NCBI RefSeq assembly: GCF_054482595.1
Contig: NZ_CM137008.1
Length of the DNA stretch: 64,000 nt
Direction: 5' to 3' (one strand)
Shown here: positions 2,921 through 46,230 of the stretch, piece after piece
Position numbering within the stretch: the stretch's first letter is position 1
Layout of the letters: every line of letters begins with the position of its first letter
The notes under the pieces: model-generated
The model's database searches: none
Seen by the model: the letters and a program-made list of their open reading frames with translations, nothing else
Told to the model about the DNA's origin: nothing
Made by a program: the position numbers and the translations under genes

Positions 2921-4303
2921 ATGGAGATGTATTTTAAAAGAATGAAAGATGAGTGGACCGGACTTGTCGAACAGGCAGATCCGCCCATTCGAGCTAAAGC
3001 CGCGGAAATTGCCGTTGCGCATGCTCATTATCTGAGTATTGAGTTTTATCGAATTGTCCGCATCGACCCGCATGCCGAAGAATTCTTGAGTAATGAACAA
3101 GTTGAGCGGCAGTTGAAAAGTGCGATGGAACGCTGGATTATTAACGTGCTTTCTGCCCAGGTTGACGATGTCGAAAGGCTAATACAAATCCAGCATACCG
3201 TCGCGGAAGTGCATGCCCGCATAGGAATTCCGGTAGAAATTGTCGAGATGGGGTTTCGGGTGCTGAAAAAGATCCTCTATCCGGTAATCTTCTCTTCGGA
3301 TTATTCTGCCGCAGAAAAACTTCAGGTCTACCATTTCTCGATTAACAGTATTGATATCGCTATGGAAGTGATGACCCGCGCGTTTACCTTTAGTGACAGT
3401 AGTGCCTCAAAAGAAGATGAAAACTATCGTATCTTCTCGTTACTGGAAAACGCCGAAGAAGAAAAAGAACGGCAAATAGCCTCAATACTTTCATGGGAAA
3501 TAGATATCATCTATAAAATCCTGCTGGATTCTGATTTAGGCAGTAGTTTGCCTTTAAGCCAGGCTGATTTTGGCCTGTGGTTTAACCATAAAGGTCGACA
3601 TTATTTCAGCGGCATTGCTGAAGTGGGCCATATCTCTCGTCTGATTCAGGATTTCGACGGTATTTTCAATCAAACCATGCGTAACACCAGGAATTTGAAT
3701 AACAGAAGTCTGCGGGTGAAATTTTTATTACAGATAAGAAATACCGTATCGCAAATTATTACCTTGCTGCGTGAATTGTTTGAAGAAGTATCGCGCCACG
3801 AAGTCGGTATGGATGTACTGACGAAATTACTTAACCGCCGTTTCCTGCCGACTATCTTCAAACGCGAAATTGCCCATGCCAACCGGACCGGTACACCGCT
3901 GTCAGTGCTGATTATTGACGTTGATAAATTCAAAGAGATCAACGATACGTGGGGCCATAACACTGGCGATGAAATTCTGCGTAAAGTCTCTCAGGCCTTT
4001 TATGACAACGTCCGCAGTAGTGATTATGTTTTCCGCTACGGGGGCGATGAATTTATCATTGTTTTGACTGAAGCTTCTGAAAACGAAACGTTACGTACCG
4101 CAGAACGTATTCGCAGTCGGGTGGAGAAAACCAAACTGAAAGCCGCAAACGGCGAAGATATTGCCCTCTCACTTTCCATCGGTGCCGCCATGTTTAATGG
4201 TCATCCTGACTATGAGCGCCTCATTCAAATAGCCGATGAAGCTCTGTATATCGCCAAAAGACGAGGTAGAAACCGTGTTGAACTCTGGAAAGCCAGTCTT
4301 TAG
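2921..4303 (+). CDS. dosC: Diguanylate cyclase DosC (globin-coupled sensor with GGDEF domain)
   Basis: 460-aa ORF; C-terminal GGDEF motif (RYGGDEF) seen in translation; immediately upstream of dosP. Confidence 0.9.
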   Translation: MEMYFKRMKDEWTGLVEQADPPIRAKAAEIAVAHAHYLSIEFYRIVRIDPHAEEFLSNEQVERQLKSAMERWIINVLSAQVDDVERLIQIQHTVAEVHARIGIPVEIVEMGFRVLKKILYPVIFSSDYSAAEKLQVYHFSINSIDIAMEVMTRAFTFSDSSASKEDENYRIFSLLENAEEEKERQIASILSWEIDIIYKILLDSDLGSSLPLSQADFGLWFNHKGRHYFSGIAEVGHISRLIQDFDGIFNQTMRNTRNLNNRSLRVKFLLQIRNTVSQIITLLRELFEEVSRHEVGMDVLTKLLNRRFLPTIFKREIAHANRTGTPLSVLIIDVDKFKEINDTWGHNTGDEILRKVSQAFYDNVRSSDYVFRYGGDEFIIVLTEASENETLRTAERIRSRVEKTKLKAANGEDIALSLSIGAAMFNGHPDYERLIQIADEALYIAKRRGRNRVELWKASL

Positions 4304-37289: not shown

Positions 37290-37400
37290 ACCGTGATCTT
37301 TCCCTGGTCCCTGTCCCGGATTGTAGTACCGGTGCCAGTTGTAGTGCAGTTCGGATTCGTCGTCATACTGCTAGCCCGGATGGCGGAGCAGTTGCTCTAG
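37290..37400 (-). pseudogene. Degenerate orphan Rhs core-end remnant
   Basis: Minus-strand translation QYDDESELHYNWHRYYNPGQG… parallels [22 protein letters not shown] at the end of the intact Rhs core, then hits a stop; DNA similarity to 38400-38480. Confidence 0.5.
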
Positions 37401-37442
37401 TCACTCAGAATATTGTAATAGTGATAGAGTGCAGTGCCGGTT

Positions 37443-37856
37443 TCAATATCCTAACGCTGGTCTTTTGCCTGTATTAACTGATTTAGCTGGTTTGCTACAT
37501 ATTAATGCCTTCAGATTTTCCCTTTCCTTGTCTGTGATACTGTCACAAACCCTACTAGCCCATTCTACTTCACTCTTCTCCAGGCATTCTATTTTCTTAT
37601 TGCTCATTGTTCTAATGTTTGGTGTTGCATCTCCATTTAATAACATCCATGTTTCATTTTTCTTCATAAAACATCTTCCATTATGTTCAAAGATATTAGG
37701 TGTGAATATATTATCAGAATCCCATGTTACGACTTGCTCGAGGGCTATATTATCTTGATAGTCCATGCCAGCATTATAATAATCACAAGATATAATTATC
37801 ATGGAAATAATTATCATGGAAATAATTATCACTAATATCTTCCCAAGCATTTCCAT
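37443..37856 (-). CDS. Putative Rhs immunity protein; predicted inner-membrane lipoprotein (137 aa)
   Basis: Start ATG directly abuts the rhs stop (…GTAAAGTAAATGGAAATG); signal peptide with lipobox IISC and Asp at +2; AT-rich like the Rhs C-terminal domain. Confidence 0.7.
   Translation of the reverse strand: MEMLGKILVIIISMIIISMIIISCDYYNAGMDYQDNIALEQVVTWDSDNIFTPNIFEHNGRCFMKKNETWMLLNGDATPNIRTMSNKKIECLEKSEVEWASRVCDSITDKERENLKALICSKPAKSVNTGKRPALGY
37792..37832. repeat. 15-bp tandem repeat (2.7 copies of ataattatcatggaa) inside the putative immunity gene signal peptide
   Basis: Seen directly; encodes the repeated SMIII segment of the hydrophobic core. Confidence 0.9.
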
Positions 37857-40800
37857 TTACTTTACCTCTTGAAATTCAAATGGGAATCCAGTGAAAGGAC
37901 CTTTAGGCATAATATATCTTTGATATCCATAAAGCTCACCGAGCACTTGTAGGCTTATAGGCGCATTTGTATTCATAGAGGGGTTGTTAAACCCGCACGC
38001 CTCAAAAATCATGTTCGTTCGGCTAAAACAATTATTTAAAACAGGAAGAGGCCCGAGGTTAATAGTTTTTAGTTTTTTATTAAGGTCTATTGCCTTATTC
38101 ATCATACATTGTTCTTCTTCATCTGTTGTATCTATTATCCAAATCCAGGTATCTCTGCGGGATTGTATCTTTTTAAAATAATCAGAGACAGAGGCTCCCA
38201 TCTCATCCCCAGTTCCCGAACTCATTAATCCATATCGATTTGCCGCCGCAGCATGCCCAAAAGGATTATCAGGAACGGGGCCGTTACCTATTATCATAGT
38301 ACTAAGCCCTAATGGATCAACGTGTTGCACTGGATTCAGCGGATATTGGTACAGATTCCATCCCCCCTTCAGCCCTATCGGGTCCTGAGTGATATACCGC
38401 CCCTGCAACGGATCGTAGTACCGGTTCCGGTTGTAGTACAGCCCCGACTCCTTATCATACTGCTGCCCCGGCAGCCGGTACGGCTGGTGCAGGTGATGCG
38501 GGTTCTCCTCATTAAGCTGGTTGCCCCATTCATCATACTCCGCGCTCCACGCCGTATTGCCGTCTTCACTGATAAGCGCCAGCGGCAGGCCCCGGTGGTC
38601 GCAGTGGTAAAGATGAACTTTTCTCGCCGGTGTGTATTCCGGCTCCATCTGTCTGGCCAGTTGCTCCACCGTCAGCCCGCACTGCGCAAGCCACGCCCGG
38701 CTTTCACTGCTCACGCGGTCTGCCCGGATTTCTTCCTCCAGTCTGTCCAGCAGCCGCACCAGTTCAGCCGGAAATACCACGCCGTGCCCGTCCTCGCTCC
38801 CTTCCTGCTGCATCTTCTCCGCCAGGCTGCGGCGCTGCGCTTTCTCCCGCTCGCCGTTCTCTGTCTCGCCCCGGATGAGCGGCGTGAAGCTTCCCGGCTC
38901 GTATACCGTCTGGATACGTGTGGTGTCAGTCTGCACCGTCGTCAGCCTGTCGCCGTCCCACCCGTACCATGTCTCCTCCGGTTTACGCGACAGCGACATC
39001 CATCCCGTCAGGTCACGCCCGCGACGCCACACCCGTTTCGCCATTCGCCGTCCCAGCGGGTCGTAGAGGTAGCAGCTCTCGACCAGTGGCTCGCCATGCT
39101 GTATCCGCGTGTAGAACACCAGGCGGTGCTGGCTGTCGTAGTGATAGTGGTGGGTGCGCTCGTCGTGCATCCGGATAACCCCTTCCGGGATACGGTCCGT
39201 CTTCTCCGCCAGCCTGCCGTATTCATCGTAGCGGTAGACATAGTGCGCATCTTCCGCGATGCGGTTATCCGGCCACGCCGTGAAGGTGCTGTCCGGGTGC
39301 AGTTCCGGGTCCGGCAGCCGGTTTCCTGCCGGGTCCGTCGCATACGGGATATCGATATCCAGGTTCGCTGCCGTGGTGTGGACGCCCGTCAGCCTTCCCG
39401 TGCCGCTGTAACGGTACTCCCGGCTCTCCTGCGGGCCGCTGATGCGGATTAGCTGTCCGTTGTCGTTCCAGTCGTAGTCATGGTCAAGCTGCGGAAGGTT
39501 CAGGTGCCTGCTCCGGAGCTGGCCGCTGGTATTCCAGGCGGTGGCAAGTTCATATGCCTCCCCGCCGAAGCTGCGGGCCGTCTCACGGTGCAGCCGGTCC
39601 CGCGTGTACTCGACCAGCGGCGTTCCGCCCAGCTTCATCCCCGCAAGATAACCGCTGCCATACGTCAGCCACTCCACCCGCGGCAGGCTGTCCGGCGTGA
39701 CGCGGTTTGCCAGACCCTGTTCGTTGTATGCGTGCTCTGTCTCATGCTGCCACAGCAGTTCCCCCGTCTCCGGGTTATGCACCGTCTGGCGTTCGCCGGC
39801 CAGGCGACCCTTATCATCATAACCGTAATGCACCGCCACCTGATGGCCTTCGCTCAGGTGGCTGATGTCTGTCAGCCAGCCGTGGCCGTCATACTGCCAC
39901 TGCTCTGCCGGTTCACCGTTCACCGTGCGGTGAGTGATACGGTCCGATTCGTCGTAGTGCCAGAGGGTGACAAGTCCCTCATCCTCACTCTGTGTGAGTT
40001 TTCCGGTCAGGTCATAATGATAACGCTGCGTCCGCCCGTCAAAGCCGCCCTGCTGTACCAGGCGGTCCAGCGCATCGTAGCTGAAGTCGCTGTGACTGCC
40101 GTTCTCGTTGGTCAGGCTGATGACACGTCCGGCAGCATCGTACTCCATACTGCGCGTCAGCCCGCCCTGCGTGGTGCTGACCGCCTTTCCCCACGCATCG
40201 TACTGTGTCTCGCTCCGGTTGCCGTCCGGGGTGATAACGGCAGTCAGGTCGCCTGCGGCGTTGTATTCATACCGCGTTTCACGGCCCTGTGCGTCTTTCA
40301 CCGAGGTTAACCGGCCACGGTTGTCATAGCGGCGGTAAAGGCTGATGCCTTCCTCGCGGTGGACCGCCGTCATCTGGCCGAAGCGGTCGTATTCATAGCG
40401 GGTCTGGTAGCCCGAGCAGTCGGTGAACGCCAGCAACTGACCGTAGCGGCTCCACGTCATCTGCCGGGTGCTGCCCGTCGCATCTGTTGTCGTGGCCGGT
40501 AATTCACTGTGCGCATCATCATAGCGGTAGCGTACTGTCTCCCCGCTGCGCGATGTCTCCGTTACCAGCCTGTCCAGTTCATCATATGCCCGGCGGCTCT
40601 CCAGCCCGTCCGGGGACACCACCGCCGTCAGCTGGTTCCCGTCGTTATAGTAAAATTTCGTCTCCCGCCCGTCCGGTGTGGTGATGTCCGTGATATCGCC
40701 GGACACCACATTCAGACCGTACTCTGTCCGCCGTCCCGCCGCGTCCGTCTGCGCCGTGAGCCTTCCTGCCGCGTCATACCCGCTGTGCGTGACGCTGCCA

Positions 40801-42062
40801 TCCGCCAGTTCTTTTTTCACCACCCGTTTCAGCCCGCCTTCACCTTCTGTATGCAGCACCTCACGCCGGTTCAGGCTGTCGGTGACGGTGATGCGGTCCT
40901 GCTCATACTGGTAGCGGTAACTCAGGCCTGCCGGGTTAAGCTGCTCCACCACCCGCCCGGTATCGTCGTAGCGGTAGCGCATCTCCGGCCTTCCCGCATA
41001 ACGGTGCCCCACCATCCGGCCCGGGTGCTGCGCGTCATACGTGAAAGCGCGCACCTGTGTCCCGCTGCGGTCATATACCGCCAGCAGTTCACCGGCTTCC
41101 GTATACGTGTACCGCGCCAGTGGCGCTCCGGGCAGGCTCTCCGGGTATGCCGGGTCGTGCATCAGCCACACCGCCAAAAGGCGGATACCCCTGTCGGGGC
41201 CGTATTCGGTACCGGGCAGTGTGTCGGGGAACGCTGAGGCTGAGAGAGGGCGGGAACGGTCAGAAGAAGATAGCGAAGAGGTGCGGGCCTCTTCCGCACG
41301 CTGCGCCTGCGTGGTCAGCACCAGACGGAACTCCCGCCCGGCACCGTCCGTCACGCCGGTGATTTCCCCGGCCAGGTCACCGGCGGCCTCACGCCGGTAC
41401 GTCAGCGTCCGCCCGAAGCGGTCCGCCATCCCGGTAAGCACCCGGTACGGCGGCAGCGGCGCTGGCAGTACGTCCTCAGCACCCGGCACCCGCTCAGACC
41501 ACCCCAGTATCCACCACGGCCCCTGTGCGCTGTTGGTCGCCAGGTAAAGATGCGGGCTTAACCGGATATCCGGCGGCAGCGACGCCCACAGCCGTGCCAG
41601 CGTATGGCCGTCCGGCTGCGTTGCCTTACCGCCACGCACCAGCCACAGGGACTCGCTGCGGCTGTACACCGCCTCACCCGGCAGCAGCGGCTCAAAGTGA
41701 ATGCTCCGTCCGCCGTTGTCGTTGAGTACCAGTGCATCATCGCGTAGCTGTAAGCGGATATCAGAAGGCGCTTTCCAGCCGGGGCCAAAAATCCCCACCG
41801 GTGCAGGCGTCTTCGTCCGGTAGCTGCTGTAGGTGCGGGAGAGAATGAACGGCAGCGGGCCGGGCAGCGCAAGGTCCGTCTCGCCGGGCAGCACCTTCGC
41901 CCCCAGTAGCGGGTTTACCGGGTTAGAATAGGTGATACCGCCCGGACACACCGAGCACGCCACACCGGTCGGCGCGCCTATCAGTACCCCCGCTGACCCC
42001 TGGACTATCGGACCGCCGTACTGGGTCATATCTCCCTGGCGTGCCGCTGGTTTTCCGCTCAT
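37857..42062 (-). CDS. rhs: PAAR-domain Rhs protein (1401 aa): N-terminal PAAR-like region, YD/RHS repeat core, DPLGL boundary, 148-aa C-terminal domain of unknown function (putative toxin)
   Basis: N-terminus [11 protein letters not shown]…; numerous YD repeats; core ends …[32 protein letters not shown] at 38304-38318; downstream CT (37860-38303) is AT-rich. Confidence 0.9.
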
Positions 42063-42129: not shown

Positions 42130-44238
42130 TCAGTACTCTCTCATATCCGGCGTATCCTGCTTTTCATCAGGTGTCTTCGGTGGGGATTTCGAGGCTGCAC
42201 AGTTCAAGTTAATCAACAGTGAGTCACCATTAACCTGCTCCTTACCCTGCAAATGAATTTTTGTGCCGTTGAGAAAAATTTGTCCGTCCTTCGTCAGCAC
42301 CAGCCTTGCCTTACCACAGCAGAGCTCCAGATGCTCCCCGGCAGAGTAAATCGCTGTCTGTCCGGTATCATCCTTCTTCGTTTTACCCACGGTGAAGGTG
42401 ACGTTATTTCCGACTTTAACGTCATATCCTTTCCCCACAAGCAGCGATTTATTTACCCCCACCTGCGAGGACTGCATCAGCGCCACCGAGGTGTTCATAA
42501 TGCCACCTACCGTCGTCTGATACGCCACGCCCACGGTCAGCGCACGAACAAGTCCAATCGTTTCCACCTGAACAGAACCCACTTTAATTATCTGGTTACT
42601 GCCCACCGTCTCTATCTGGTTAACACCCACCGTCTGTATCTGATTGTTGGTAACCGCAATCATCTGATTGTTGCCAATGGTTTCAGCATGGTTGTTTATC
42701 ACATCCGTGGTGCGGTTATTCAGCACCTCGGTGTTCATGTTCTTCTGCGCGTGGATGTAGACCTGTTCTTTCCCTGTCGCATCGTCAAACTTCAGTTCAT
42801 TAAACCCGCTGCCCTTATAGGTTTTCGAACGAATGGTCATCTGCGTCTTCGTCCCCGGCAGGCTGCCGGGGGTGCGGTTTTCCTGGTGGTAGGTACGCCC
42901 CATAATAATCGGCTGGTCCGGATCGCCGTTGAGGAAGTCCACAATCACCTCCTGACCCACACGCGGTATCGCCAGGTTGCCAAAGCCGGTGCCTGCCCAC
43001 GCCTGTGCCACACGGATCCAGCATGAACTGTCCTGGTTTGACGGGTTATAGCGGTCCCAGTTAAATTTCACCCGCACGCGGCCATGTTCATCACAGAAGA
43101 TTTCCTCGCCTGCCGGTCCCGTCACGACGGCGCTCTGCGGGCCGTCCACCATCGGTTTCAGCAACGGCTGTGGCCGCCATGTCCGGTCTGCCGGGATTAC
43201 CGCAAAGTGGTTATTCAGCGTGGTACCTGAACCACTGCGTCCCGGCACCGCCTGCGGCTGCTCGCCGTGCAGTTCACTTGCCACCACCTGCCATTCCCGG
43301 TTCAGGTTCGCCTGCGGATGCCCCGTCAGCGCAATTCGCCGTCCCGGCCATATCTCCGGAGAACGGCTTGTTCCGCGCGCCACTTCTGCGTTGTTTCGCC
43401 AGCCATCCATCTGCCAGCGGGCAAAGTTCTGCCCGTGGGCACCCTTGAAACGTCCGGGGTAGTCATACACTTCATACTGTGTGCGCTGGTAATCCTGGTA
43501 CTGGCCTTCCTGATCAAAACGCCCTGCCCAGCCGGGTCGTTTAAAGGTGTAGTCTTTGGTCACCACGGAAGAAGGGCGGATTTGTGCGCTGTAGCGAAAC
43601 TGGCTGATGCATAGGGTGCTCACCTCGGTACGGGTGTTCGGGTTCCAGGGGATCTCAAAGGACTCCGGCAGATAACGCACGGTGTCGCACAGGACCAGGC
43701 TCTGGTCGATACTTTTTTGCGCGTGCTCCTCATAAAAGAAGATGCCTTCCTCCGCCGCCATCCGGCACAGGAAATCGTAATCGGTTTCGCCGTACTGGAC
43801 ACAAAACTCACGGGAAGGATGTGGCTCGCTGAACAGCGGGCTCCACTCGGTAACCCCGTTTTCCTGCAATATCGTGCCGAGGATGCTTTCGATGTCCTCA
43901 TTCTGGAAGATACGGAAGTTCTGGCGCAGCCCTGTGCGCCACAGCGGTGGGCACACCTTCATGCTGTACAGCATCTGGTTTTTGTCGTTCTCCCCCAGTT
44001 CAAACCAGGTCACCATACCTTTCACCCGGCGCTGTACGTCATCGCCCTGCCATACCGTCAGGTAGGCCATTTTGTCCAGCACCTGCGCAAATTCAAGGGA
44101 AAGAAACTGCTGACTGACCAGAGAAAGGTCGAGGGAAAAAAGTGAAGAGAGTGACTGGGAGAGGTGAAAGGAAACCACCGCAAAAGCATCCGGTGGCAGG
44201 CCGTCCACTTCAAGTGTGAAACGTAATCCGGTTGACAT
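42130..44238 (-). CDS. vgrG: Type VI secretion spike protein VgrG
   Basis: Start placed at MSTGLRFTLEVDGLP within ORF 42130-44274; VgrG gp27/gp5-like sequence; 67 bp upstream of rhs. Confidence 0.85.
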   Translation of the reverse strand: MSTGLRFTLEVDGLPPDAFAVVSFHLSQSLSSLFSLDLSLVSQQFLSLEFAQVLDKMAYLTVWQGDDVQRRVKGMVTWFELGENDKNQMLYSMKVCPPLWRTGLRQNFRIFQNEDIESILGTILQENGVTEWSPLFSEPHPSREFCVQYGETDYDFLCRMAAEEGIFFYEEHAQKSIDQSLVLCDTVRYLPESFEIPWNPNTRTEVSTLCISQFRYSAQIRPSSVVTKDYTFKRPGWAGRFDQEGQYQDYQRTQYEVYDYPGRFKGAHGQNFARWQMDGWRNNAEVARGTSRSPEIWPGRRIALTGHPQANLNREWQVVASELHGEQPQAVPGRSGSGTTLNNHFAVIPADRTWRPQPLLKPMVDGPQSAVVTGPAGEEIFCDEHGRVRVKFNWDRYNPSNQDSSCWIRVAQAWAGTGFGNLAIPRVGQEVIVDFLNGDPDQPIIMGRTYHQENRTPGSLPGTKTQMTIRSKTYKGSGFNELKFDDATGKEQVYIHAQKNMNTEVLNNRTTDVINNHAETIGNNQMIAVTNNQIQTVGVNQIETVGSNQIIKVGSVQVETIGLVRALTVGVAYQTTVGGIMNTSVALMQSSQVGVNKSLLVGKGYDVKVGNNVTFTVGKTKKDDTGQTAIYSAGEHLELCCGKARLVLTKDGQIFLNGTKIHLQGKEQVNGDSLLINLNCAASKSPPKTPDEKQDTPDMREY

Positions 44239-45346
44239 AGCAACCTCCGTGAAAATGAATAATAATCCGCACATATTGCATGTACAACATGTCGGGCGGA
44301 TGAGATAAGCGAGTCGACATCTGGCGTTACCGGGGAATATCAGAAAAATGTCATGGTTATGTGATGATTTAGTCTGGGATTTTACTTCAGAGAAACGGGT
44401 GTCTGTTTAGTCAACAAAATAATCACAAACGCAACGGATGGGTTCTCGACGTTATTCACGACAGGCTCGTACATTACAGCGAGTAATAAAAAACCCGATA
44501 TGCAAAGTCAAACCAATATTCATAATGTCTTTTTATTCACAACAATAAATAATTTAATAACAATCATTGAAATGAATGATGATTTGTATAAGGAATATAC
44601 GCTACCGCCCCACCCTGATAACATGATCTGCACATTGCCATCTTAACGTCGTTAAACACTGGCTTAATAGTGGATATTTCAAATTAGGAATTTATTAAAT
44701 TCACCTGATGAATATCATAAGCAAATAGCATAGAAAATAATGACAACTCCCCCGAGGGGACCATTTCCAAAGCACTGCACCACCACCTGGTGCCCGGATG
44801 ATCTTGCTTCAGTGGTAAGAGTACCTGATTCATTGTTCCCAAAATGGTGTTTTCCCCTGCCCCTCCAATAATGTGCAGCTCTCACGTGATAATCTATTGA
44901 TTAGGTTATATTAAGAATCAATATTTAAAATACATCCATTTTCTTGAATAAATCAACATGTTTATTAATCAATTGCTGTTTTAGCTCTGACTCATCAAGC
45001 TCTCCATATTTGTCCTACAGATAATTGCGAATAAATACAGAGAACGCCATTTATCCTTTTAGCATACCTGCCGGATATTTTTATTTGTATTAATATTAAT
45101 TGCATCTCCAACTCCGAGCATATCCATCATTAAAAAAATTTTGAGATTATAGAATACCTGTGATAACAAGTGAAACATCTGCACAATGTGAATAGTTAGT
45201 TTCTTTTCAGAGGAAATGAAATAGACACGCTGAATGAAAGGGAGAGTGATATAAATTAAAAAACATAACGTGAATTTAATTAATTACGCCCATCATTGTG
45301 GATAAAGTTACTGAATAATAAATAACATAATCTTCTGGTATCCCAC

Positions 45347-45964
45347 TCAAATAATTTCATTCCTTTTTAGTATTTCTTGTAACGTTGGTAACTGACATAC
45401 AGCATCAGCAATCGCACTGATATTCGTGGCATTATCCTGAAACCATTCATGCCCAGGCCCCCATGTGCGCATAGTGCAAAGATAACAGTCCACCAGCGTT
45501 AGTTGCTCACCAAACGCATAAGGTTCAGCGGTCAATTGTGAATTCAGCCAGATATAAAGCGATTTACGATATTCAATAACATTCTTCTTTAACTGTTCGG
45601 GTGCGTCAGGAGCCCAACGCTCAGGGTAATCGGCGAAAGTGAATGTTGGATAGACATTAGCAACCAGCCAGACCAATAGCCGTTGAAACTGCTGACGTTC
45701 GGCGCGCCCAACCGGTGGCGCAAGGTCCGGGCGACGATCGAGAACCATCAATGCAATCGCCGCTGTCTCCGTCATAATCTCGTCATTTTCCAATGCCAGT
45801 GTCGGAACCTGACACAACGGGTTCAGGGTTTTCAATAACTCGCGTGAAGCTCCCTCGTGGTCAAAACCACTGACATCAACGAACTGATAAGGAATATCAG
45901 CCAGTGTTAGCATCAGCTCACTGATTGTAGAGCCCCATCCGGGTACGCCATACACCTTAATCAT
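45347..45964 (-). CDS. yncG: Glutathione S-transferase homolog YncG
   Basis: 205-aa ORF; GST-like N-terminal region; synteny next to ansP. Confidence 0.8.
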   Translation of the reverse strand: MIKVYGVPGWGSTISELMLTLADIPYQFVDVSGFDHEGASRELLKTLNPLCQVPTLALENDEIMTETAAIALMVLDRRPDLAPPVGRAERQQFQRLLVWLVANVYPTFTFADYPERWAPDAPEQLKKNVIEYRKSLYIWLNSQLTAEPYAFGEQLTLVDCYLCTMRTWGPGHEWFQDNATNISAIADAVCQLPTLQEILKRNEII

Positions 45965-46230
45965 ATGCCCCTCACAATCTTTTAAAGATTAAGTGTAGGA
46001 CAGTACACAGGTTAACCAGCAAAAGGATTTGTCATTTTTTCGTCAGTTGTATTAATCCCCTTCAGGATTGTAAGGGGATGTTTTGCATCGTTTATCGATA
46101 ACGGGTAGGATGCTGCGCCGATAGTTTTATACCCATAAAGAATAATGGTGATAACTATCATCGCCAGGATGAATAAACATTGTTCATGGCAACTTATATG
46201 ACTTTTTCATTAAAGCAATCAGGGAGAGCA

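Follow-up and report, generated by a model that had tools for sequence, protein, structure and literature searches.

A predicted lipoprotein immunity gene behind an Rhs toxin carries an in-frame 15-bp repeat in its signal peptide that varies in copy number among Escherichia coli

The DNA analysed here is a stretch of 64,000 nucleotides (NCBI RefSeq assembly GCF_054482595.1, contig NZ_CM137008.1), referred to throughout as the window, and our subject is a small open reading frame (ORF) that abuts the toxin-encoding end of an rhs gene and appears to be the immunity gene of that toxin. The ORF is an annotated coding sequence in the identical genome of strain XH990, where its product is WP_021556798.1. 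The locus comprises the following features:

37443..37856, minus strand: immunity gene, an ORF of 137 amino acids (aa) in the window allele with an ATG start, taken from the ORF list and from homologs; predicted prolipoprotein.
37788..37856, minus strand: predicted signal peptide, residues 1-23, with the n-region MEMLGK and then a 17-residue uncharged hydrophobic region (h-region), ILVIIISMIIISMIIIS, ending in the I-I-S of the lipobox.
37782..37787, minus strand: codons of Cys24 (+1, predicted to be lipidated) and Asp25 (+2, the Lol-avoidance residue), both invariant in the alignment of homologs.
37792..37831, minus strand: 15-bp tandem array of 2.7 perfect copies (Tandem Repeats Finder: period 15, 100% matches, consensus ATAATTATCATGGAA).
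37865..37870, minus strand: Shine-Dalgarno-like AAGAGG within the rhs 3' end, 8 nt upstream of the immunity ATG; putative function.
37857..38318, minus strand: toxin domain at the C-terminus of Rhs, which runs from DPLGL as far as the stop, about 150 residues; predicted permuted NlpC/P60-type papain-like fold.
37857..42062, minus strand: full Rhs protein, 1401 aa, WP_040234712.1.
42130..44238, minus strand: VgrG spike protein (annotated at 702 aa; WP_021556791.1), which presumably carries the Rhs effector.

The rhs stop codon TAA occupies 37859-37857 and the A of the immunity ATG is 37856, which leaves zero intergenic bases; these coordinates confirm the TAAATG junction described in an earlier sequence-only reading of the window. 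Translation of the immunity gene from this first ATG, coupled to that of rhs, is plausible. The N-terminus of the protein is MEMLGKILVIIISMIIISMIIISCDYY, and it reads MEMLGKILVIIISMIIISMIIISC followed by DYY across the predicted cleavage point. The G+C content falls from 63.5% in the Rhs core (38319-42062) to 39.4% in the toxin domain (37857-38318) and is 33.6% in the immunity gene, a sharp drop at the boundary between core and toxin that is typical of horizontally exchanged Rhs tips. The same reading had taken the ORF for a putative immunity gene, and its arrangement supports this: as in other Rhs pairs of type VI secretion systems (T6SS), a small gene of low G+C content directly follows, on the 3' side, the variable C-terminal domain of Rhs within a vgrG-rhs module. 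Furthermore, toxin domain and immunity gene stay paired in other genomes, both behind full-length rhs and in orphan arrangements in which rhs is cut down, and in the metagenomic toxin relative P0039 a homolog of the immunity protein comes next. A scan for promoters and terminators returned consensus-level matches only, in AT-rich DNA, from which we draw no inference. Two antisense ORFs, 37429-37758 and 37683-37835 (both plus strand), were set aside as mechanical ORFs without support.

A search of 5.8 billion proteins recovered a narrow family of immunity proteins in E. coli, Salmonella, Citrobacter and metagenomes. In the alignment of these homologs, which extends to 58% identity and includes Salmonella, S23, C24, D25, Y27, N28 and A29 are invariant, as are four more cysteines of the mature part (C62, C91, C104 and C120); the residues before the lipobox Cys diverge (ILVIIISMIIIS, TLVAIIFMLIIS, ILAVITPMIITS, GVLITIISMMIVS, LFTIIIITTITS). 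The homolog 3' of the metagenomic toxin relative reads MKLNNFSVSMVFIITITGC followed by DYYNAA when an in-frame upstream ATG is taken as the start, and the lipobox Cys is kept in the L017 homolog. The PROSITE entries PS00013/PS51257 specify the lipobox as {DERK}(6)-[LIVMFWSTAG](2)-[LIVMFYSTAGCQ]-[AGS]-C, with a K or R among the first 7 residues and the Cys at position 15-35; pattern and rules fit the window allele (K6, lipobox IISC, Cys24) and every homolog tested. The h-region of the window allele has 17 residues with a mean Kyte-Doolittle hydropathy of 3.2, and the homologs have 12-13 uncharged residues before the Cys. In addition, two family members are named "Lipoprotein" by UniRef automatic rules. 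For the immunity protein as a whole we found no credible Pfam or NCBIfam match, the only hits being weak and Kelch/NanM-like (E 0.01-0.09), which we take as chance, and a PDB sequence search with it gave no match.

It might be argued that the protein is not lipidated at all, and that its N-terminus is either an uncleaved transmembrane anchor of a bitopic protein or is bypassed by an internal Met start that leaves a cytoplasmic protein. The h-region is Ile-rich and, at 17 residues (22-27 in longer alleles), close to transmembrane length; each repeat unit holds an ATG; and in Tox-Act1, a related toxin, the immunity protein is held by transmembrane helices and not by lipid. A plain membrane anchor, however, would not need the invariant Cys that follows [IVT][ITV][SG] and precedes D-Y-Y-N-A, and the 12-13 uncharged residues of the homologs are too short to span a membrane. 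The Shine-Dalgarno sequence is positioned for the first ATG, whereas the internal Mets have none and fall within the hydrophobic core, and the four invariant cysteines of the mature part suit an oxidising periplasm, a location with which their even number would also be consistent. Because the Cys and its flanks are under selection and the hydrophobic core is not, a pattern expected of a lipoprotein signal but not of a plain anchor or an internal start, we favour a lipoprotein signal; absence of lipidation seems improbable, and the immunity ORF most likely encodes a lipoprotein, as its sequence predicts. The sequence-only reading had named the lipobox IISC with Asp at +2, and the lipobox Cys and the Asp both hold up across the family; a downstream Met as the true start, with no lipobox, would have contradicted it and is not seen.

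The residue that follows the predicted lipidated Cys bears on where such a protein would be placed. It has been previously reported that Asp at +2 is the enterobacterial Lol-avoidance signal, which retains lipoproteins in the inner membrane, and that in strong retention signals it is typically followed by Asp, Glu or Gln at +3 (PMC6469965). D25 is invariant in all homologs, no basic residue is adjacent to it, and +3 is Tyr (Cys in one variant). The protein resembles the E. coli inner-membrane lipoproteins with an Asp +2 signal in its lipobox, its Asp and the lack of a basic residue nearby, and differs from them in the Tyr at +3. From Asp +2, retention in the inner membrane is predicted and likely.

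The partner toxin points to the same compartment. In 32 sequences at about 30% identity, His22 and Cys97 of the toxin domain (numbered from DPLGL; the Cys lies in the motif NNCFSRTN) are invariant, and the family counts 358 representatives, most of which stand at the end of an Rhs/YD-repeat protein. In the AlphaFold Database the domain matches the C-terminal domains of further Rhs proteins as well as many periplasmic N-terminal domains of the DUF4105/Lnb type; its fold is papain-like, the catalytic His preceding the catalytic Cys, and this modelled fold places it in the permuted NlpC/P60 superfamily, which takes in YiiX, TseH, LRAT, DUF4105/Lnb and Tox-Act1. TseH, a relative by fold, is toxic only when sent to the periplasm, where TsiH neutralises it (PMC4453574). 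The Salmonella T6SS toxin Tox-Act1 belongs to the same permuted superfamily, as a sister to DUF4105/Lnb, is toxic only in the periplasm and is a phospholipase; its immunity protein, Imm-Act1, carries a pair of transmembrane helices (PMC12994826).

As an independent test of the compartment, we inspected five distinct proteins encoded downstream of distant toxin relatives for export signals, and lipoprotein-type signals were present in four of the five:

L014: ankyrin-repeat protein, 146 aa, 3672-4112; signal FLAC followed by S.
L020: ankyrin-repeat protein, 146 aa, 797-1237; signal ISGC followed by S.
L018/L019: unrelated 101-aa protein; signal LFGC followed by T.
L017: homolog of the window immunity protein; signal ITGC followed by DYYNAA.
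L013: ORF of 116 aa, start call uncertain; no signal peptide.

Since unrelated immunity proteins converge on a lipid anchor, this toxin family would act at the periplasmic surface of the membrane. The proteins at L014 and L020 look like members of one ankyrin-repeat family of immunity lipoproteins that serves the same toxin fold.

In its general plan the pair would work as known ones do, with an exported or membrane-anchored immunity protein facing an envelope-targeting T6SS effector, as in TsiH for TseH and in Imm-Act1. The Tli proteins, which confer immunity to Tle phospholipases, are likewise lipoproteins. The window protein differs from the named immunity families in having no sequence similarity to them (no Pfam, NCBIfam or PDB match), and TseH is a stand-alone effector whereas the effector of the window is the C-terminal domain of an Rhs protein. 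A close parallel is Tox-Act1/Imm-Act1 (PMC12994826), which shares the permuted NlpC/P60 fold, the His before the Cys, the kinship to DUF4105/Lnb and TseH, and a membrane-anchored immunity protein. The catalytic residues are His43 and Cys151 in Tox-Act1 and His22 and Cys97 in the window toxin; Imm-Act1 is held by its two helices, whereas the window protein has a predicted lipid anchor with Asp +2. Compared with Tox-Act1 by its published description, the window pair does not have the two-helix immunity partner that goes with the Tox-Act1 clade.

The predicted signal peptide contains the tandem array. In gene orientation the array consists of TGATAATTATTTCCA twice and then TGATAATTAT, and each full unit encodes MIIIS. 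The sequence-only reading had reported 2.7 copies of a 15-bp unit at 37792-37832; start, period and copy number were right, and the end lies one base short of that, at 37831. The 64-kb window contains no other perfect tandem array this large, and in dinucleotide-preserving shuffles its size was reached in 0 of 30 of the whole window and in 0 of 2000 of the AT-rich toxin-immunity module. The array is a true duplication, because most ortholog loci are exactly 15 bp shorter.

We then compared copy number across loci. Our census covered 5,426 complete E. coli genomes, about 562 of which (about 10%) carry the locus; contig counts come from exact-protein look-ups among about 15 billion proteins, in which only proteins identical outside the repeat were counted. 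Alleles were told apart by record spans, ranking order and exact-protein look-ups, as identity bands are unreliable where BLAST split the matches. The allele series, given as protein length, position of the lipobox Cys and number of uncharged residues before it, is as follows:

0.7 copies: 127 aa; Cys 14; 7 residues; complete genomes, 0; contigs, 24.
1.7 copies: 132 aa; Cys 19; 12 residues; complete genomes, about 546; contigs, at least 1000.
2.7 copies (window): 137 aa; Cys 24; 17 residues; complete genomes, 13; contigs, 703.
3.7 copies: 142 aa; Cys 29; 22 residues; complete genomes, 1; contigs, 16.
4.7 copies: 147 aa; Cys 34 (derived by adding one 5-residue unit); 27 residues; complete genomes, 0; contigs, 1.
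5.7 copies: 152 aa; Cys 39; 32 residues; complete genomes, 0; contigs, none.

Every natural allele, from 0.7 to 4.7 copies, is in frame and retains the lipobox, and from 1.7 to 4.7 copies the Cys stays inside the PROSITE range of 15-35. The common protein, with 1.7 copies, reads MEMLGKILVIIISMIIISC, and its DNA has just a 10-bp direct repeat (TGATAATTAT) at 15-bp spacing; 1.7 copies is the ancestral and dominant state, and the window allele is a derived, minority one. Copy number is thus variable and not invariant among E. coli orthologs, a comparison that the sequence-only reading had proposed, and the in-frame gain and loss of units by slippage that it had foreseen is seen in the series from 0.7 to 4.7 copies. 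The idea that 0.7 copies would be missing, and could be read as selection against too short a signal, was ruled out by the 24 contigs, 3 of them beside an intact toxin.

An extra unit could in principle be an error of sequencing or assembly, as AT-rich, low-complexity repeats are prone to miscalls and the 4.7-copy allele is a single contig. Against this, 2.7 copies occur in 13 independent complete genomes from different laboratories as well as in the 703 contigs, 3.7 copies occur in 16 contigs from several assemblies, and all differences are exact 15-bp units. As an explanation of the extra unit an artefact is extremely improbable, and for the 0.7- to 3.7-copy alleles it is effectively refuted.

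The backgrounds on which these alleles occur show how often the array has changed. Over 12.2 kb, eight 2.7-copy loci (human, duck, chicken, pig and environmental; China, Japan and Russia) match the window at 99.5-100% identity, and their VgrG, Rhs and neighbouring proteins have the same accessions, so that the 2.7-copy allele goes back to one event and has been inherited clonally; it is unchanged in all loci identical over the 12.2 kb. The simple recent duplication that the sequence-only reading had offered as one of two alternatives is therefore the best fit, as a single clonal event in an array that changes rarely. The flanks of the 3.7- and 4.7-copy loci match the window at 99.7-100% identity, and these loci thus represent further steps on its background. 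The 0.7-copy allele occurs on two other backgrounds: in one the Cys codon is TGC and the toxin is frameshifted, in the other the codon is TGT and the 1409-aa Rhs is intact. The NSG protein haplotype (at least 1000 contigs) showed no length variants. Taken together, there were at least five independent slippage events, at a low rate. Within the expanded lineage about 17 of 720 contigs have changed copy number again, so slippage seems to be faster after the array has become a perfect duplication.

Several of these backgrounds have further peculiarities. In one 0.7-copy group (L021-L024 and L026) the toxin domain of rhs is frameshifted within AIDLNKKL, about 200 bp upstream of the immunity start and ahead of the catalytic Cys, which leaves a toxin pseudogene beside a retained immunity ORF; downstream there are a group II intron reverse transcriptase and an ISAs1 element. 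In most 3.7-copy genomes (L005 and L030-L033) the module is an orphan, an N-terminally truncated rhs behind ISEc1 (ISAs1-family) about 3 kb upstream, and a different full-length Rhs with its own immunity gene of 197-207 aa lies upstream. Microhomology has given rise to one more indel in the immunity gene. In L004 (3145-3504; enterotoxigenic E. coli L7_E1373) and in P0005, 39 bp are deleted in frame between two direct repeats of GATAATATA, which removes 13 aa (ALEQVVTWDSDNI) from the N-terminal portion of the mature protein. The stretch that holds this deletion has low confidence in the AlphaFold2 (AF2) model and may be a flexible tether.

A further question is whether the repeat is adaptive. 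An h-region of 7-27 residues could alter the choice between the SecB and signal recognition particle (SRP) routes, change the efficiency of Lgt and LspA, or give an uncleaved anchor, and thereby set the amount or topology of the immunity protein. The five natural length alleles, all in frame with the lipobox kept, would suit such tuning, as would the 12-13 uncharged residues before the Cys in divergent homologs, which imply that length is normally constrained, and the frequency of 2.7 copies (703 contigs) across hosts and continents. That spread, however, is accounted for by clonal descent, and change is rare, since the 12.2-kb-identical loci all have 2.7 copies and the NSG haplotype is invariant. 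Moreover, a cleaved lipid anchor and an uncleaved one would both tether the protein on the same face of the inner membrane. Even uncleaved, a long h-region would keep the domain at the periplasmic face, and expansions may be tolerated for this reason. We consider adaptive tuning unlikely. A more elaborate version holds that along the series of 7, 12, 17, 22 and 27 residues targeting shifts from post-translational to SRP, or the anchor from cleaved lipid to uncleaved, and that copy number, selected in T6SS-armed lineages, governs the level or the placement of immunity to an Rhs toxin that targets lipids from the periplasm; this too is a doubtful proposition. An effect of copy number on export route or on export efficiency, the latter being the other alternative of the sequence-only reading, is no more than possible. 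With the reading frame and the lipobox preserved in all alleles, and as judged from the population pattern, the polymorphism is most probably close to neutral.

Other repeat and signal-peptide polymorphisms offer partial parallels. In human APOB the polymorphism is an in-frame 9-bp, 3-residue indel in the hydrophobic core. Like the window locus, it is a natural polymorphism of a signal peptide (rs17240441/rs11279109; PMC4201729, PMC5586014). Unlike that locus, with its five alleles in 5-residue steps, APOB is eukaryotic, has two alleles and does not involve a signal peptidase II signal. The contingency loci of Neisseria, Haemophilus and Mycoplasma lipoproteins share with the window slipped-strand mispairing in a tandem repeat of a gene for a surface or envelope protein. 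They switch on and off frequently by frameshift, whereas the window repeat is in frame, of low copy number and stable within clones. High-frequency switching among close relatives was not found, given the stability of 2.7 copies over 12.2 kb, the invariant NSG haplotype and the in-frame changes, and because changes are rare the repeat is not a contingency locus.

The explanation we prefer combines these strands. The ORF would be the cognate immunity gene of the upstream Rhs toxin, translated from the Shine-Dalgarno sequence inside the rhs 3' end; its product would be exported by Sec, receive a lipid on Cys24 (position 19 in the common allele), undergo cleavage by signal peptidase II and be retained in the inner membrane by Asp +2. 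The result would be a small domain, probably with two disulfides, tethered at the periplasmic face of the inner membrane, where it would neutralise the Rhs C-terminal domain, a predicted permuted NlpC/P60-type cysteine hydrolase. Like its relatives TseH and Tox-Act1, this toxin probably attacks the envelope from the periplasm, with membrane lipids the most likely target. The array may have arisen by replication slippage between chance 10-bp microhomologies (TGATAATTAT, 15 bp apart) in the Ile-rich, AT-rich DNA of the h-region; the window allele, with one unit gained, would then have been inherited clonally, the perfect 30-bp duplication would have grown further on the same haplotype, to a gain of two and of three units in all, and contractions by one unit would have occurred independently elsewhere.

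Some observations weigh against this explanation. Tyr at +3 is outside the residues of strong retention signals (PMC6469965), so that some sorting to the outer membrane is possible, and the AF2 model of the immunity protein is poor, with a predicted local distance difference test score (pLDDT) of 61. The Cys14 of the 0.7-copy allele narrowly fails the PROSITE position rule, yet this allele stands beside an intact 1409-aa Rhs in 3 assemblies; in those strains either a very short signal remains functional or immunity can be dispensed with. Only the fold connects the toxin with TseH and YiiX: its domain has no Pfam or NCBIfam match, Lnb_N is weak (E 0.002-0.1) and limited to 4 of the 32 toxin relatives, a PDB sequence search with the toxin gave no match, and the 32-sequence profile run against PDB matched just the Rhs core residues included in the alignment. 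With these points taken into account, the whole (a cognate lipoprotein immunity gene, a periplasm-acting toxin and a near-neutral slippage repeat) is probable.

Functionally, then, the arrangement would be an ordinary one, a periplasm-facing, membrane-tethered immunity protein for an envelope-targeting T6SS toxin. The analysis assigns a likely compartment and fold to an uncharacterised Rhs pair of E. coli and Salmonella, found in about 10% of complete E. coli genomes, and connects this pair with the permuted NlpC/P60 toxins that were recently described as targeting lipids. That the immunity proteins of this toxin family appear repeatedly to be lipoproteins of unrelated folds helps to predict the site of action of new toxins. 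Furthermore, the five natural signal-peptide lengths form a ready series for effects of h-region length on Lgt/LspA processing and membrane sorting.

The surroundings of the module hold some smaller features. In the window the island consists of vgrG-rhs-immunity only, inserted between yncH/yncG and pptA (42130-44274, 44275-46000). T6SS core genes occur nowhere in the 64-kb window; certain other strains (L023) have hcp, impA and icmF-like genes directly beside the same vgrG, so the window lineage has either lost the core cluster or carries it elsewhere. Just downstream of the immunity gene, in the 594-bp gap between it and pptA, a remnant of an Rhs core end (containing DDESELHYNWHRYYNPGQGPG) lies at 37300-37364 on the minus strand; its counterpart in another strain (L003) is annotated as a partial RHS pseudogene, and it is probably the scar of an earlier, displaced toxin-immunity module. 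Farther away, at 62749-62903 (minus strand), the "mRNA interferase" beside hicB is annotated in the identical strain XH990 as a frameshifted pseudogene, and the hicB antitoxin is intact.
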